A stretch of DNA of 55,913 nt from a virus (taxonomy: Duplodnaviria > Heunggongvirae > Uroviricota > Caudoviricetes), in IMG/VR virus record IMGVR_UViG_2778261121_000001, positions 1 to 55,913 of that record; one strand, written 5' to 3'. The position numbers and the translations under genes were made by a program. Below, one piece after another: positions 9,982 through 38,474 of this stretch; position 1 is the stretch's first letter, and each line of letters starts with the position of its first letter. Below the pieces are notes generated by a model. The model saw only the letters and a program-made list of their open reading frames with translations. It was not told the origin of the DNA and ran no database searches.

Positions 9982-10523
9982 TACGATGCCTCTAACTTAT
10001 CTAACTCTTTCAGCCCTTCACGTACCGCGTTCACAATGCGTTCCAGATACTGGTATTTCGGGTTTGGTACCGTTGGCCAGTCGGCATACCACGGATCATC
10101 ACCAAAGAGATTCAGCAGTTTGTTACCGACGCCGAAACAACAGCAGCTTTCTTTTACGTCATCGGCGTTTTCCGCCTCGTCCCACATTTCACGAGCCAGT
10201 ACGGCGTCGATTTCTCTCTCTCTTCGTAACTTTATGATTTCTGACTTCACGAAAAGCAGATTTGCATCGTTGTCATCGTCGACCGTGCTTCGCAGTTGAG
10301 AGTCGAAATAGCCGATTAGATACTCGTTGCTGACCCGCTTAATGAACGTCTGCACATCATCACCGCCCATAGCAAACCAAGCCGCAGTCCACGCTTTTCC
10401 GTAGCAGATGATGGTGATTCTTCCCTTACCAGGTTCGTAGTTTTCAATCATCACTCGAACCGGATCGAGGCGTTCCAGATCCGTCAGCACAAAGGAAAGA
10501 ACATCTATTTTTTCGACCTTCAT
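9981..10523 (-). CDS. hypothetical protein (180 aa from the MKVEK start)
   Basis: ATG at 10521-10523 with GGAGG Shine-Dalgarno and ATGA overlap with the upstream stop. Confidence 0.45.
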   Translation of the reverse strand: MKVEKIDVLSFVLTDLERLDPVRVMIENYEPGKGRITIICYGKAWTAAWFAMGGDDVQTFIKRVSNEYLIGYFDSQLRSTVDDDNDANLLFVKSEIIKLRREREIDAVLAREMWDEAENADDVKESCCCFGVGNKLLNLFGDDPWYADWPTVPNPKYQYLERIVNAVREGLKELDKLEAS

Positions 10524-11161
10524 GCAGCCTCCCACGCGCTCCAGATCAGCGATTTGTGTTTTTCATAACGTTTGATGTGTACCGGTTTCAGAAGCGCAAT
10601 ACCTTCAGTGACTTTCGCCATTGCGCTTAATAGCAACGGGTGTTCTATACCTATCCTCTCCATGTACTCGACAACATCAGCGTTGGCACCAATCTCTTTG
10701 CCGTGAAAGAGTACGTCCAGCATCAGTTCTTTCTCTGCGAGGTAGACAGCTGAAAACTCGGGATCGCGACTCACGATAGAAGAGGTATTGTCGAGCAGGT
10801 CAGCCAGCTTGATCATGCGCGTCTGCATGTCGAGATTTTGCTCCAGCTCCCGGACATTGATGATGAAACGCTGTATTCGATTGCCGTCTTCTGGCCTTGC
10901 AATGTTGGTCAGAGCCTGAACCATTTCAGCTACGCGCTCACCGAAGTGATCACGAACCATCTCTATGGTTACATGGGTGTCTTCGACCACATCATGCAGA
11001 AGCGCCGCGATTTGCATCTCCACGGTTCCGTCATGCAATGCAACAATCTCTCGGACAGCAACCGGGTGGTTGATGTAGTCTTCGCCGGTATATTTTCTTT
11101 TCTGACCAACGCCACCATGAGCGCCAGCGGCGAACATATGAGCTTCGGAAATACTAGACAT
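10520..11161 (-). CDS. HD-domain small alarmone hydrolase (SpoT/Mesh1-like)
   Basis: RelA/SpoT-type HD motifs (HDVVEDT and the N-terminal H...HP region); 213 aa with no synthetase domain. Confidence 0.6.
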   Translation of the reverse strand: MSSISEAHMFAAGAHGGVGQKRKYTGEDYINHPVAVREIVALHDGTVEMQIAALLHDVVEDTHVTIEMVRDHFGERVAEMVQALTNIARPEDGNRIQRFIINVRELEQNLDMQTRMIKLADLLDNTSSIVSRDPEFSAVYLAEKELMLDVLFHGKEIGANADVVEYMERIGIEHPLLLSAMAKVTEGIALLKPVHIKRYEKHKSLIWSAWEAA

Positions 11162-11280
11162 TCTTAACTCCGTTGTTTTCTAGTTGTGGTTATTTTCACA
11201 AATAAGAAAAGGTAGAAAACAATTTATTTAAGGCCACAACTTATGGCCTTTATTTATTCATGCCGAAGGATTTGTAGCGT

Positions 11281-11661
11281 CTAATTGCCGGATAAAATGG
11301 GGTGAGGTGCTTGCCAGTAGGCTCCACCGGTCCATGTGAACCCCATGCGAATAAGAGTGTTTATTGCGGCTTTGGTAGACTCCGATTCGACACTGGCTTT
11401 TCGAAACTCTTGAACCTCTTTCGCCAACTTGTATGTAATTGTGCAGGGGACGATTGCAGCCCAGCCTTTCTCATGACTGTTAATGACCATCTGGATGTGG
11501 CCATCCAGAATAGGTTGATTAGGCATGTTATTGAAAATGTCTGCCTGTTTTTGAATGTGAAGAAAAAGCCTTGCCAGCTCCATTTGCTCACTACGAGACA
11601 AGGGATTATCAAGAGGGCTTTTTGCAAAAGCGGCTATACGCTGTGCGTCAATGCCAAACAT
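11281..11661 (-). CDS. hypothetical protein (126 aa)
   Basis: ORF in track. Confidence 0.45.
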   Translation of the reverse strand: MFGIDAQRIAAFAKSPLDNPLSRSEQMELARLFLHIQKQADIFNNMPNQPILDGHIQMVINSHEKGWAAIVPCTITYKLAKEVQEFRKASVESESTKAAINTLIRMGFTWTGGAYWQAPHPILSGN

Positions 11662-12365
11662 CAGCGCACCTCACCATCTTTATGGCTGGACTTAACTTCC
11701 GCCATTAAATGTCTGACGTAATCGACAAGAGAGCCGCCTGGTGGAATCTGGCATTCCTCGACTAACTGGAAGTAGATATCCGCTGCATTACGTGTATTGC
11801 TACCTGTGCATATTTTTTCTTCACGAAGAGCATTACGTTCGTTGATCAAACGAACGCACTCGCCGTTACGCTGCTCCACAACGGCCTCAAGTTCTGCGAC
11901 GCGTTCACCTGGCGTCTTACCTTCTTTGCGTTGGATGGTAACGACGAAATCGCCAATTGCAGGGACGTTGTAATCCAGCTCAAGGTAGTTTTTGGCACCG
12001 CTGCGGACGAACTCACCCGCGAACATGGTAGCGAACATCGCAGAGGCCACTTCGCCGTTGAAAAGTGACTCCAGATCTAACGGAGTCCCAGCAGCAATAG
12101 CCTCTTTTGCTGTATCCATTGCATCCATGAACCGATCAAACTCACTAGCGCGCTTTTCCAGGTCTTTCCATTGCTCGCTCCAACGTTTGGCAACGAAGTC
12201 TATGAATGTTTTCGCGGATTCATCAAAATTCCCCTCAAACTTAACGATGCCTTTATCAATAATGATCTGGCCTACCGCATCCTCTGCATAACCTTTCAAT
12301 GTAAACTTGAAAGGAAAATCGGAATGGCCTGTGACGTTAAAATGCTCTAACTGGAGGTTGCTCAT
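11661..12365 (-). CDS. hypothetical protein (234 aa)
   Basis: ORF in track; start in the conserved GAAAAACACATG context. Confidence 0.5.
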   Translation of the reverse strand: MSNLQLEHFNVTGHSDFPFKFTLKGYAEDAVGQIIIDKGIVKFEGNFDESAKTFIDFVAKRWSEQWKDLEKRASEFDRFMDAMDTAKEAIAAGTPLDLESLFNGEVASAMFATMFAGEFVRSGAKNYLELDYNVPAIGDFVVTIQRKEGKTPGERVAELEAVVEQRNGECVRLINERNALREEKICTGSNTRNAADIYFQLVEECQIPPGGSLVDYVRHLMAEVKSSHKDGEVR

Positions 12366-12426
12366 GTGTTTTTCTCTTATCGTTTAGTTACTACATTCTT
12401 ACACAAATTAAGTAAGCATTTACCTA

Positions 12427-14112
12427 TCATTTAACGCGTTTGAAAACGTATACGCTGACTGTGATCCCGGTATCTTCAAACTCGTTGGTAAACGACTTCC
12501 CTTTGGCATAAACGTAATTATCCATCGTCATCCAGCTCAGGATTGGCGCAGTGCCCGGCAATACTGCTACAAGACGACCGCCGAGTTTCAGATGCCCCAG
12601 CGCAGCCAGCGTGTGCTCTCTATGACGACCAAGCGAGTACGGCGGGTTCATAACGATTTTGTCGAACTGATAACCTGCGTTGTCCTCAGACCACTTTATG
12701 AAGTCGCAGCAAATCGTGTTCGTATACCCTTTTCCACGCAGGATATCAGCGAAGAGAGGTGCGATTTCTATGCAGGTAACATCTTCCAGATCGGCGTTAA
12801 TATAGGCCAGAAGATCCCCACGTCCGGCTTGAGGCTCCAACAGCTTCTCACCAGGCTTCAATTCAGTGGCTCTTGCAACGTACTCAGCAATCAAGCGTGG
12901 GGTAGGGTAGAACTGGTGTGATTTTGTATCCGGTATTAAACCGGTAGCCACAATCGTATTTAGCGTATGGCCGATGTCATACGGGAACTGCCAGTGCTTT
13001 TTCTCCTGCACGCCGCCAATGAAGCTCAGTGTGCGCTCAAGCTCTTCCACCTGCGACTTCTGGAGAGCTGAATCAGAGAAGTACCATACGCCTTTGTCTT
13101 TGCTCAATCGCCCGTCACGAAGCGCAGTGCGAACCGGCACGGAGATCGTCTTCTGGATTAACCCGAACTGCTTTGGTGCCCGTGTTTTTGGCGCAGTTCG
13201 GCATGGCGCGGGAATTGCAGCAGGCATACTGTAAGCCAGCACCTCATTCAACTTCCAGGCCACGTCAGGATGTATTTCAAAGTGAACGTTGCCGTTCTTG
13301 AACATCTTCACGCGCATCAGATTTCCATCGACGTTCATCCAGTCACCGGTCTGGCAGTCGTTTGCCCGATACGCAGCTGATAGCACCTCAGCAGTGCGGT
13401 TGATGGTAATAAATTCTTTGTGCGCGAAGAAATGAAGCAAGACACGCAGATCGTCGATGTAGTCCTCTTTGCGATAGTTCACGCTAACGCTGTCCCGCCA
13501 GAAATCAGAAATGCAGTCAGCGATTATCAGACGCTCGCTGAAACCGTTTGTCTTATTTGTCTTGTGCGCAGGACTCAGCGCCTTAAACAAGCCATACACG
13601 CGCTCAGAGAGATATTTGTGCCTGTCATTCAGCAAATTAAGCATCGTGGGTATGACCGTTTCTGCTTTGAACTCCGGTACACCAACGAACTCTTTAACCT
13701 TCATCTGGTAGCCGGTTCTGTCAGTTTTGATGACTTCCTGTTTGCCCTCTATAAACTGCTCGCGCCACTCATCTCGACGGGAAGCTGGCATGATCAGCAA
13801 AACGTTAGTCATGTCCGTGACCTTCCTCCAGTACTCGGCCCAAATATTCTGTTTCACCCATTCCAGATCGACTTTATCCAACCAACCTCGATTTAAACGC
13901 GAGCGATCTTCATCTGGTCGATGGTTTAGTCTCAGCAGGCGATTAATCATGTTGTGGCGTTCGTCGCCATAAACGAAGTCGTGAACCTGATACATGAAGG
14001 CGATCTCTTTCTCGCACTCGGCCACAATTTCGTGGATGACGTTCATTTCCTGCCGATAGTCGATAGCAGTGTTTGAGTTGGCATCGTCGATGATGGAAAG
14101 GGCTGTATTCAT
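12427..14112 (-). CDS. DNA amino-methyltransferase (C-terminal NPPY domain) fused to a ~380-aa N-terminal domain of unknown function
   Basis: C-terminal FYPTP, LEPQAGRGDL (motif I) and NPPY (motif IV); N-terminal domain has no recognisable motif. Confidence 0.7.
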   Translation of the reverse strand: MNTALSIIDDANSNTAIDYRQEMNVIHEIVAECEKEIAFMYQVHDFVYGDERHNMINRLLRLNHRPDEDRSRLNRGWLDKVDLEWVKQNIWAEYWRKVTDMTNVLLIMPASRRDEWREQFIEGKQEVIKTDRTGYQMKVKEFVGVPEFKAETVIPTMLNLLNDRHKYLSERVYGLFKALSPAHKTNKTNGFSERLIIADCISDFWRDSVSVNYRKEDYIDDLRVLLHFFAHKEFITINRTAEVLSAAYRANDCQTGDWMNVDGNLMRVKMFKNGNVHFEIHPDVAWKLNEVLAYSMPAAIPAPCRTAPKTRAPKQFGLIQKTISVPVRTALRDGRLSKDKGVWYFSDSALQKSQVEELERTLSFIGGVQEKKHWQFPYDIGHTLNTIVATGLIPDTKSHQFYPTPRLIAEYVARATELKPGEKLLEPQAGRGDLLAYINADLEDVTCIEIAPLFADILRGKGYTNTICCDFIKWSEDNAGYQFDKIVMNPPYSLGRHREHTLAALGHLKLGGRLVAVLPGTAPILSWMTMDNYVYAKGKSFTNEFEDTGITVSVYVFKRVK

Positions 14113-14154
14113 AATTGCACCATTAAGAAGTGATTTGTTTAATGGTGCAATTAT
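14111..14154 (-). promoter_or_regulatory. perfect 16-bp inverted repeat sequestering the methyltransferase start codon
   Basis: ATAATTGCACCATTAA-N12-TTAATGGTGCAATTAT; the ATG at 14110-14112 lies at the base of the stem; no U-tract follows. Confidence 0.5.
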
Positions 14155-14215
14155 TTCAAAAATGAAAAGGTACTAAATAGAAATAAACAGGCAATCCTTC
14201 AAATAAAGGCATTGG

Positions 14216-14830
14216 CTAATCATACTTGGAGGTATTTATCACCAGAATTTTGTTTGTATAAATCTTCTTAATATCCCATGTGACATTACCGGAATACCAT
14301 TGACCGTTATATACTTGGTTTCCAGTTGCACCTGTCATTGTTACATAGACAGGTCTGTCGTAATCGGTTCGTCTATAGTTATATACTCCAACCATAGCAG
14401 GCATTACCGCACATGGATACCCCATATCTATTGTAAATTGAGGGTCAGAAATAGTGATAAGTTTCGCATCAAGGGGCATCATCTCACCGTGATACACCAT
14501 TGCGCCTGCGCTGTTATACATGGCAATGCCATAGCCAGAATGTGGTAACACCATATCAGAAAAAGCATAAACTGTTATTGTTCCGGGGCTACCATTTACC
14601 TGATGCAATCTGAGAGCATTGTATCCGTTACTATGCTCATGAATAAACATCATGTTCGCCTTATTACTGCTTTTTATGAAAAAAAAACATGATTTGTTTG
14701 ATGGGATTGATGTTTGAAAAACAGAACCTTTAGATGTAGACATTGTCCCTTTATTAATCAGATTTTGCGGAGTAAATTCTGGACTCATCCACAAACTTCC
14801 ATCTGATTGAGTAATTGACATCCCGAACAT
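14216..14830 (-). CDS. hypothetical protein (204 aa), AT-rich cassette gene 2
   Basis: ATG at 14828-14830 with GGGGA Shine-Dalgarno 2 nt after the upstream stop; visibly lower GC than its surroundings; contains a T9 tract. Confidence 0.4.
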   Translation of the reverse strand: MFGMSITQSDGSLWMSPEFTPQNLINKGTMSTSKGSVFQTSIPSNKSCFFFIKSSNKANMMFIHEHSNGYNALRLHQVNGSPGTITVYAFSDMVLPHSGYGIAMYNSAGAMVYHGEMMPLDAKLITISDPQFTIDMGYPCAVMPAMVGVYNYRRTDYDRPVYVTMTGATGNQVYNGQWYSGNVTWDIKKIYTNKILVINTSKYD

Positions 14831-14832
14831 AA

Positions 14833-15114
14833 TTATCCCCAGTATGTGTATATGTAAGAACCAAGCCCCGTATATAAATTTGACCAACTAACCGTATTTC
14901 CATTAATAGTAACATTTGGAACAGGTAAATTGATGTAGTTGTCGTTGTTAAGAGGCATTAATGACCACACGGCATGTAGTGATTTACCCGGTGGCGGATT
15001 AGAGTACGTCTTAGAGCCTGATGACGCCGTAAATCGATCAAGAAAAAAAATAGGTGTAAGGAAGCCAGTAACGTTAATTCCTTTATTGTTGTAAATCCCT
15101 GTACCGTATGCCAT
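14833..15114 (-). CDS. hypothetical protein (93 aa), AT-rich cassette gene 1
   Basis: ORF with AAGGATGA Shine-Dalgarno; AT-rich; contains a T8 tract. Confidence 0.4.
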   Translation of the reverse strand: MAYGTGIYNNKGINVTGFLTPIFFLDRFTASSGSKTYSNPPPGKSLHAVWSLMPLNNDNYINLPVPNVTINGNTVSWSNLYTGLGSYIYTYWG

Positions 15115-15168
15115 TTTTCATCCTTGTTTTTATCAACATAATATGGCCGATCATGCGGCCATATCAGA

Positions 15169-15738
15169 TCAATTAGAGCTTTGAAAGGCTTTGTGTGGTT
15201 GTGTTGCGAGGTTATGTCGATGGCTTAACTCACGCATCATGTCTTCAAGGCGACTCTTTGTGTCGTCGAGTTGGTCGGCCATTGCTCCCAAAAGCTGACG
15301 AACGGCCATCGGATCATCGCTGTTTAGTGATGGCATTTTATAACCCGCCTGAGAAGACATAAGATTGAACGCAGACATCAACATCGTTAGAGAGGATTTA
15401 AGCCCAGCAATTTCACGATCTTTGCTGGCAATAATCGCCTCACTCTTGTTAGTGTCATCAGTTCGTTGAGTCTCGCTCACCATATCCAAAGTCGCCTGCA
15501 ACTTATCAGCGCGCTCTTTTTCAGCAAGATAATGAACACCGAAATGATGTGCTAAAGCTACAACCTGAGTTGGCTCTTCAAAGGTGGACTCAAAATTAAG
15601 TGCTGTAACCACTCTCTCAAATATGGAAACGTCTTCTATTCCTCGAAGAATGGCTAACATTTTGACCAGTTCATTAGCATCCATTTCTTCGAATAAGGCG
15701 TTTTGTTCATCAGCTATCGCTTTGCATTTCTTGCACAT
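15169..15738 (-). CDS. hypothetical protein (189 aa)
   Basis: ORF in conserved start context; 5'-leader motif at 15756-15775. Confidence 0.5.
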   Translation of the reverse strand: MCKKCKAIADEQNALFEEMDANELVKMLAILRGIEDVSIFERVVTALNFESTFEEPTQVVALAHHFGVHYLAEKERADKLQATLDMVSETQRTDDTNKSEAIIASKDREIAGLKSSLTMLMSAFNLMSSQAGYKMPSLNSDDPMAVRQLLGAMADQLDDTKSRLEDMMRELSHRHNLATQPHKAFQSSN

Positions 15739-15877
15739 GTGTTTTTCCTAATGCTTAAACAAGTTGTTTTCTTATTGGCTTTATTGTGATGTGGCATAAA
15801 AGGGGAGCAAGCTAAACGTAAAGGTGCAAACTCTCTATTTCGGTCAACGAAACACAAGGGCCATTTGGCCCTTGTCA

Positions 15878-16461: not shown

Positions 16462-16554
16462 GTGCTTTCCTTTTGTTATTTGTTAAAACAAGTTGTTTTC
16501 TAGTTACATGAATTGCTTACGAAAAGACGGTCAATGCATATGCACTAACAACCG

Positions 16555-18811: not shown

Positions 18812-18996
18812 GTTAGTTTCCTTAAAGTGATTCATAAAATCGATTTTAAAGCGTCTGGGAAGGGGTTCTAGTGGATTCTGTAGTGATGTTCAGGTCTGGA
18901 GTCTCTGATACAAAACAGCCTGCTTCCGTATATTAATAATTAATATGTAGTTATTTATATATACAGAAGCAGGCTAATTACAGACGCCAGAACAAA

Positions 18997-19654: not shown

Positions 19655-19733
19655 AAAACGCGCCAGAAATGCAAACGAGAAGCTCTCTGGCGCGTTTTTG
19701 TGGTGCTGGGTATGTGATTGGCTTACCCAGCAC
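19655..19733 (-). terminator. tandem terminator hairpins
   Basis: AACGCGCCAGA/TCTGGCGCGTT stem with U-tract, then a 10-bp GTGCTGGGTA/TACCCAGCAC stem, downstream of the 19774 stop. Confidence 0.5.
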
Positions 19734-38424: not shown

Positions 38425-38474
38425 GTTTTCTTATCCTTTTAAACAAATTGTTTTCTTAATAAGATAATTGCGAT

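Follow-up and report, generated by a model that had tools for sequence, protein, structure and literature searches.

A start-codon hairpin overlapping the predicted promoter of an orphan methyltransferase gene in an SSU5-type phage-plasmid

How can a gene be expressed when its start codon forms the base of a perfect stem, and which of its transcripts would carry that stem? The question is raised by a methyltransferase gene on a 55,913-nt stretch of viral DNA (IMG/VR record IMGVR_UViG_2778261121_000001; the whole stretch is referred to here as the window), which represents half of an SSU5/pHCM2-type phage-plasmid. The 2-kb region around the gene has 99.1% DNA identity with Escherichia phage Cyrano, which E. 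coli LF82 carries as a plasmid prophage; the identity is 90% with Salmonella phage SSU5 and 82-89% with phage-plasmids of Klebsiella. The methyltransferase orthologues in Cyrano and SSU5 are CYRAN_90 and SSU5_095. A preliminary description of this DNA proposed that the start codon is locked in the stem and that the stem exerts translational or processing control rather than termination. The analysis presented here supports a real and lineage-specific hairpin that overlaps the gene's predicted promoter and so probably silences only read-through transcripts.

The hairpin over the start codon

The gene, its leader, and the related elements are located in Table 1. The leader holds a perfect inverted repeat of two 16-nt arms, 100% complementary across a 12-nt loop, which reads AUAAUUGCACCAUUAA-ACAAAUCACUUC-UUAAUGGUGCAAUUAU-G in the order of the mRNA strand. 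The A and U of the AUG are the final two paired bases, confirming the earlier placement of the start codon at the base of the repeat, and the sole Shine-Dalgarno (SD)-like element, GGUG (14121-14118), lies within the 3' arm. Leaders were compared across 170 loci drawn from phage records, IMG/VR, and metagenomes, which comprise 41 distinct sequences; over 32 distinct leaders, TGGTG is (nearly) invariant, and the N-terminus M-[NS]-T-A-L-S is kept across orthologues. The repeat folds with an energy of -19.5 kcal/mol, compared with -6.2 +/- 2.2 for dinucleotide shuffles (z = -6.15), and none of 200 shuffles was as stable. By chance, about 8e-4 perfect 16-bp repeats with loops of 3-60 nt are expected in the window, which contains no second perfect repeat of 16 bp or more. 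Computationally, a stable helix covers the SD and the start codon as in hairpins of the T4 gene e type, and any RNA starting at or upstream of 14149 has an SD with a probability of being unpaired, P(unpaired), of 0.00.

The hairpin lies in the 103-nt gap between the stop codon of the upstream gene (14216) and the methyltransferase ATG, and in the window clade it takes the place of a GC-rich terminator that is located further upstream in SSU5 relatives. This location would suit an RNA end-formation element, whether it terminated transcription without a U-tract, stabilized the 3' end of the upstream transcript, or served RNase III as a processing site, yet such a role is highly improbable. An intrinsic terminator was rejected since the stem is AU-rich (5 of 16 pairs are G-C), the loop spans 12 nt, the terminator scan does not report the site, and, as had been noted before, no U-tract follows the stem (GAAUACAGCCC; tail GAAUACAG). 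The stem also extends into the start codon of the next gene, and a 16-bp helix is short for RNase III.

Table 1. Positions of the methyltransferase gene, its leader, and related elements, in window coordinates unless a relative is named; (-) marks the minus strand, ORF an open reading frame, and SAM S-adenosylmethionine.
Feature	Position	Basis or remark
Methyltransferase coding sequence, 561 aa; DUF4942 module plus gamma-type N6-adenine methyltransferase	12427..14112 (-)	ORF list, PHROG 6263
Start codon ATG	14110..14112 (-)	First start after in-frame stop
N-terminal module, residues 1-395	12928..14112 (-); DUF4942 core 13228-13695	Putative DNA-recognition or positioning module
C-terminal class I SAM-dependent amino-methyltransferase domain	12430..12927 (-)	
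QFYPTP, residues 400-405	12898-12915 (-)	
Motif I LEPQAGRGD, residues 425-433	12814-12840 (-)	
Motif IV NPPY, residues 489-492	12637-12648 (-)	
Predicted extended -10 TGAAATAAT	14150..14158 (-)	TG 14158-14157, hexamer AATAAT 14155-14150
5' arm ATAATTGCACCATTAA	14139..14154 (-)	CACC pairs with the SD; first five bases belong to the predicted -10 hexamer
Loop ACAAATCACTTC, 12 nt	14127..14138 (-)	SSU5-type leaders carry the AGAAAACAA-nTTGTTT box here, lost in the window clade
3' arm TTAATGGTGCAATTAT	14111..14126 (-)	Contains the start codon's A and T and the SD-like GGTG (14118-14121)
Cassette copies on the gene (-) strand	1445-1466, 11173-11194, 15764-15785, 16493-16514, 38448-38469	
Mirrored cassette copy	11201-11222	
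Cassette copies in relatives	L002 2553-2574, 5738-5759, 6461-6482; L003 5739-5760, 6453-6474	
Second orphan methyltransferase, 197 aa	18997-19590 (-)	Pfam PF05869 'Dam', E 5.9e-38; NPPYS motif

The predicted promoter and a proposed selective locking of transcripts

The 5' arm overlaps a putative extended -10 element. The pattern TG-n-nAnAAT is nearly invariant in the 32 distinct leaders, whether or not it is paired in a stem, and the equivalents of the window element TGAAATAAT are TGGGAAAAT in SSU5 and TGAGATAAT in Klebsiella. A GC-rich hairpin stands 100-125 nt upstream of the ATG in the SSU5, L091, L116, L120, L122, and L123 types, in several of them followed by a T-run. Since GC-rich terminators lie upstream in several clades, the promoter must lie in the conserved 85-nt leader. 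The gene is thereby predicted to possess a sigma-70 extended -10 promoter of its own at 14158-14150, and the usual spacing from the hexamer would put the transcription start near 14143, inside the 5' arm.

The reading that we favor, with a probability of about 0.45, is a gate of the T4 lysozyme type, in which read-through mRNAs would be locked and mRNAs from the gene's own promoter would be open. Transcripts arriving from the upstream genes would carry both arms and form the -19.5 kcal/mol hairpin, hiding GGUG and AUG and remaining untranslated, while those from the predicted start would lose most of the 5' arm and become translatable. For an RNA starting at 14143, the computed SD P(unpaired) is 0.36 and the minimum free energy is -4.6, with the SD and AUG partly open. 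No terminator-like site is found on the minus strand between 15854 and 14112, and an upstream cassette promoter lies near 15772. The leader of the window clade would have diverged in such a way that its 5' arm, while overlapping the -10 element and the predicted start, came to complement the SD/AUG region perfectly.

Such an arrangement has a precedent in T4 genes e, 49, soc, and I-TevI, where a promoter in the 5' strand of a hairpin that sequesters the ribosome-binding site (RBS) yields translatable transcripts and those initiated upstream are silent, as shown experimentally (PMC3014915). The geometry predicted for the window is alike in that the hairpin covers the SD and/or AUG and the promoter lies in the DNA encoding the 5' strand. 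In T4, however, the inner promoter is a late (gp55) promoter with mapped 5' ends that provides temporal control in a virulent phage, whereas the window, from a temperate phage-plasmid, has a predicted sigma-70 extended -10 as its inner element, and its hairpin is present in some clades only. As a small, naturally occurring system, the hairpin lends itself to testing transcript-selective translation beyond T4.

If transcription instead began upstream of the 5' arm, every mRNA would contain the full hairpin, and the enzyme would be synthesized either as a trickle or whenever the stem is opened, for example by a small RNA, a protein that binds RNA, a helicase, or temperature. This constitutive locking, which is essentially what the preliminary description had in mind, appears unlikely. 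RNAs that include 14154 do fold the stem with an SD P(unpaired) of 0.00, the window clade lacks a predicted terminator between the methyltransferase and the genes upstream of it, and two or three of the single-side changes in long-stem clades produce G.U pairs, which are compatible with an RNA structure. Expression data are also compatible with tight control: in LF82 lysogens grown in LB medium, the mRNA of the gene is near the detection floor (2.8-3.1 as log2(5+FPKM), FPKM being fragments per kilobase per million), and it reaches 5.6-6.0 after 6 h in macrophages (PMC9928086, S1 Table). However, the TG-extended, -10-like hexamer is conserved family-wide regardless of pairing and is in register with five other cassettes of the phage (see below), and several clades have a terminator just upstream, so that a promoter is needed in exactly that stretch. 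With no known opener, a stem of -19.5 kcal/mol would leave the gene nearly untranslatable, yet intact alleles are found at 26 of the 35 perfect-stem loci. Nor is the candidate leader ORF that ends at the stem (14213-14157, minus strand) conserved. The idea of control rather than termination survives in that the hairpin fails as a terminator and is computed to hide the SD when the whole 5' arm is present; it would not hold for the gene's own transcripts, which probably start inside the arm and would lack the lock.

That 18-codon ORF, with its ATG at 14213 and TGA at 14157, begins 3 nt past the stop codon of the upstream gene and stops 3 nt short of the hairpin. Coupling through a leader peptide was rejected on the grounds that the ORF is not conserved within the clade, the ATG being ATA in L152 and an early stop occurring in L109.

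Clade distribution, covariation, and the repeated cassette

About 60-85 nt 5' of the ATG are homologous throughout the family, and the sequence beyond is mosaic. Within this homologous stretch, the strong stem is specific to certain clades and is no general feature of the gene. Leaders of the window type form a perfect or near-perfect 16-bp stem of -16.5 to -19.5 kcal/mol, and those of the L091 type, whose protein is 99% identical to that of the window, form a 12-bp stem of -12 to -14 kcal/mol. L125 and L129 reach -14.9 and -9.7 kcal/mol, the SSU5 types about -6 to -7 kcal/mol (SSU5 itself -5.8), and the Klebsiella types -1 to -6 kcal/mol. In the alignment of the 32 leaders, 76.6% of cells pair in register, compared with at most 49% when the partner is slid by 1-3 columns. 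Changes on both sides, seen at three pairs, convert G-C to A-U between the window and the L091 type, U-A to A-U in L153, and both C-G and G-C to A-U in L125.

Several points weigh against the proposed gate. The stricter -35/-10 rule of the promoter scan did not call the 14158-14150 site, and a start at 14146, only 3 nt upstream of the predicted position, would keep an 8-bp stem with the SD mostly paired. The strong stem is absent in most of the family, including SSU5 and Klebsiella, and the gene thus works without it. In the L091 clade, the 12-bp stem coexists with an upstream terminator, and stem strength does not simply track read-through. The covariation is modest, since the 7 double-change cells were equaled by 9 of 500 shuffles and the score by 27 of 500, and paired changes also arise from palindromic operators or template-switch mutation. 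Furthermore, the A-U swap and the CACU (G.U) variant occur mostly on alleles truncated at codon 158 and are for that reason not explicable by selection on translation of the full-length enzyme. Finally, the RNA-seq values for the gene in LF82, which are near the floor in LB lysogens, are per gene and do not distinguish read-through transcripts from those of its own promoter. Two simpler generalizations were also abandoned: strong stems do not occur only where the upstream terminator is missing, as the L091 clade has both, and G.U changes are weakened as proof of RNA-level constraint by the same truncated genes.

The window clade also differs from SSU5 (L002 5719-5875) in the presence of two extra small genes of 201 aa and 93 aa at 14216-15114 (-), situated between a 189-aa gene (15169-15738) and the methyltransferase, at the place where SSU5 has a GGGGGCGAAAGCCCCC-T6 terminator. 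Neither inserted gene has a Pfam match, and the 93-aa gene is annotated as 'putative outer membrane protein' in Cyrano. It is conceivable that the palindrome is non-adaptive, having been created by template switching ('quasipalindrome correction') or at a recombination junction when this insert replaced the upstream terminator, and that it persists without a regulatory role. Set against the SSU5-type leader, the 3' arm has hardly changed, and the complementarity is made by five substitutions, all in the 5' arm, as would be expected from a single templated event, and the upstream context of the window clade departs from that of SSU5 from about -85 outward. The SSU5-type leader shares its hexamer-N10-box layout with the other cassettes of the phage, the paired A-U swap sits on dead alleles, and most clades have no stem. 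Even so, a purely accidental origin is quite improbable, as long stems of different sequence are found with intact genes in at least three lineages (window type, L091 type, and L125), the last of which encodes a protein of 80% identity and has two further A-U pairs plus a U.G in its stem. In addition, -19.5 kcal/mol over the SD and AUG cannot be neutral for those transcripts that contain it.

The leader of the methyltransferase gene belongs to a cassette that recurs across the element. Its architecture comprises a T-rich stretch, a hexamer ending in AAT, exactly 10 nt, AGAAAACAA, nTTGTTT, an SD, and an ATG, often following a terminator. In the window, AGAAAACAA occurs 9 times against 1.05 expected and AAT-N10-AGAAAACAA 9 times against 0.72 expected, with 5 of the latter preceding start codons on the gene strand. 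The SSU5 and pJN2-26 loci show a similar enrichment of AAT-N10-AGAAAACAA, and their methyltransferase leaders match it exactly. The window leader keeps the TG and the AAT-ending hexamer, and its -10 element is in the same register as the five other cassettes of the phage, but the AGAAAACAA box is missing and is not recovered at up to 1 mismatch; the leader reads TAAACAAAT/CACTTCTT where the box would be.

Plasmid prophages are known to have dispersed operator and promoter networks, such as the C1 operators of P1. The cassette resembles the P1 C1 network in that a short motif, here AAT-N10-AGAAAACAA-nTTGTTT, recurs beside many promoters; it differs in that its sequence is unrelated to the P1 operator consensus and that the window methyltransferase leader has lost the box. 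The cassette may constitute a dispersed promoter/operator code of SSU5-type phage-plasmids, and as a possible regulatory code of these elements it ranks among the most useful by-products of the analysis. No description of it was found in the literature.

The palindrome could also act at the level of DNA and repress transcription by binding a dimeric protein, which might be a phage regulator or, in the role of autorepressor, the methyltransferase itself. Such an operator would span -11 to about +33 and would replace the AGAAAACAA/TTGTTT box. The repeat does overlap the predicted -10 and start site, the usual box of the family is lost in precisely the window clade, and other cassettes are palindromic around their -10 (11163-11232; mirrored motif 11201-11222). 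The arms of L153, which change together even on truncated alleles, also fit a constraint on DNA. We nevertheless regard an operator as decidedly unlikely. The arm sequence is not present beyond chance elsewhere in the 56-kb window and the P1 C1 operator consensus is not matched, leading to the rejection of a repeated operator; a 16-bp half-site with a centre-to-centre spacing of 28 bp is atypical; some intact alleles tolerate changes in one arm alone (CACT, CATC); and no DNA-binding regulator was identified.

Other symmetries were observed among the cassettes. AAACAAnTTGTTT is a small palindrome in itself. The cassette that precedes an HD-domain phosphohydrolase gene (10520-11161) has its -10 region in the middle of a 33-nt imperfect palindrome (11163-11232) with 73% complementarity and a 4-nt centre. 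TTGTTTTCT and AGAAAACAA bracket this palindrome 32 bp apart, and the same 32-bp bracket is found at 1445-1494.

The methyltransferase, its family, and its neighborhood

The encoded protein has the 561 residues and the NPPY motif reported previously. PHROG 6263 'DNA methyltransferase' matches residues 1-561 (E 3.1e-299). QFYPTP, LEPQAGRGD, and NPPY lie in the C-terminal 165 residues in the order X-I-IV of the gamma class, on a class I Rossmann fold with a SAM-binding motif I. Their columns are (nearly) invariant in 26 homologues, down to 33% identity, with N489, P490, and P491 invariant and position 492 being Y or F. From these motifs and its context, the protein is assigned to the DUF4942-methyltransferase family as a phage-borne, orphan N6-adenine DNA methyltransferase, for which the gamma-class enzymes M.TaqI, M.BseCI, and CamA represent the closest known enzyme class. 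Most probably it would methylate the DNA of the element itself and so shield it from restriction by the host.

Gamma-class enzymes usually carry their target-recognition domain C-terminally. No such domain is present here, as the roughly 70 residues after NPPY complete the Rossmann sheet and the extra module is N-terminal. This N-terminal module would stand in for the C-terminal target-recognition domain. The preliminary description had called it uncharacterized and suggested a domain search; residues 140-295 in fact match Pfam DUF4942 (PF13708) with 74 bits against a cutoff of 25, so that the wording was off, although no match of the 395-residue module to any solved fold was found. A more ambitious reading joins the leader to this module. 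In the window clade, the shared box (AGAAAACAA/TTGTTT) would have been swapped for a promoter-embedded RBS lock, so that the enzyme is made only from its own promoter and never by read-through from the inserted pair, amounting to a de novo gate of the T4 lysozyme type in a temperate plasmid-prophage, and DUF4942 would be a DNA-recognition domain of new fold with unusual specificity. As a whole, this combination is doubtful.

The two-part layout that led to the term fused methyltransferase is real, though not unusual, being the standard architecture of the whole family. Searched alone against 1.84 billion representatives, the N-terminal module matches 612 clusters at 50% identity, 415 of them at E <=1e-10, and the full-length matches are nearly all proteins of 500-590 aa that carry the module at the same place. 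The DUF4942/PHROG 6263 methyltransferases (SSU5_095, pHCM2 'YdiA', and CYRAN_90) are full-length orthologues of 62-99% identity with the same architecture, which extends to 400+ clusters; these relatives are all orphans of early or accessory regions. The protein in itself thus has nothing distinctive, and the window clade differs in its leader alone, which lacks the AGAAAACAA box and has the perfect 16-bp repeat. Neither the type of enzyme, nor its orphan context, nor the sequestering of an RBS by a hairpin is unfamiliar, and current understanding is not overturned. Nothing usable was found in the literature on DUF4942 or on the specificity or promoters of the SSU5 or pHCM2 methyltransferase, DUF4942 being mentioned in passing only, nor was a methylome or biochemical report for the DUF4942 methyltransferase family. 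Given a family of about 600 clusters at 50% identity, a single methylome result would supply an annotation for hundreds of genes in phages and prophages.

The earlier view of the enzyme as an orphan is borne out. In the six neighboring genes tested (10520 to 15738), Pfam and PADLOC gave no nuclease or defense match, and the annotations of Cyrano, SSU5, pJN2-26, and PhiR41_1 contain no adjacent restriction endonuclease or specificity subunit. With no cognate nuclease adjacent, the gene is, by its sequence context, an orphan rather than part of a restriction-modification system. Membership in a defense system was rejected as well, the PADLOC matches (mad2, MTase_II) being limited to the methyltransferase domain. 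Distant homologues (31-38% identity) are located in the early-right operons of lambdoid prophages beside orphan N4/N6 and C5 methyltransferases.

SSU5-type phage-plasmids carry resistance genes in Enterobacteriaceae. Orthologues of the methyltransferase are found in Escherichia, Salmonella, Klebsiella, Enterobacter, and other hosts on contigs of phage-plasmid size, many of 100-118 kb. The leader is present in 227 of 5426 complete E. coli genomes (about 4%) and is plasmid-borne in every case. In many relatives, the gene ends at codon 158 (L146, L147, L149, L151, L152, L216, L236, and others), and truncated or frameshifted alleles account for about one fifth of the sampled loci. PHROG 16000 (158 aa, 'unknown function') corresponds to the truncated methyltransferase fragment. 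Such frequent truncation indicates that the enzyme is dispensable and that the locus is an insertion hot spot; together with the near-floor expression in LB, it disfavors an essential epigenetic role. In L149 (1501-3343; IMG/VR contig 2718218304_000001), the next gene, on the opposite strand, encodes a type I restriction R subunit (EcoR124_C, E 9e-73). The frequent disruption of the gene, for example by a type I restriction system, is a further useful by-product.

The distant DUF4942-methyltransferase homologues in lambdoid prophages include those of L255 4948-12320 on an Enterobacterales chromosome and of L256 8001-10936 in Variovorax, which lie downstream of cI/YdaS/replication genes. These homologues adjoin one or two more orphan methyltransferases (N6_N4_Mtase, C5 DNA_methylase) and look like methyltransferase 'stacks'. 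Downstream of the window gene, 11661-12365 and 11281-11661 (-) hold Ead/Ea22-like and Eaa-like early-region genes according to the Cyrano annotation, and the 234-aa downstream protein has a sub-threshold DrmE_N match alone (E 0.008). The Dam-like methyltransferase that had been described as separate is indeed a distinct gene (Table 1), and it is flanked by hairpins at 18917-18975 and 19655-19698.

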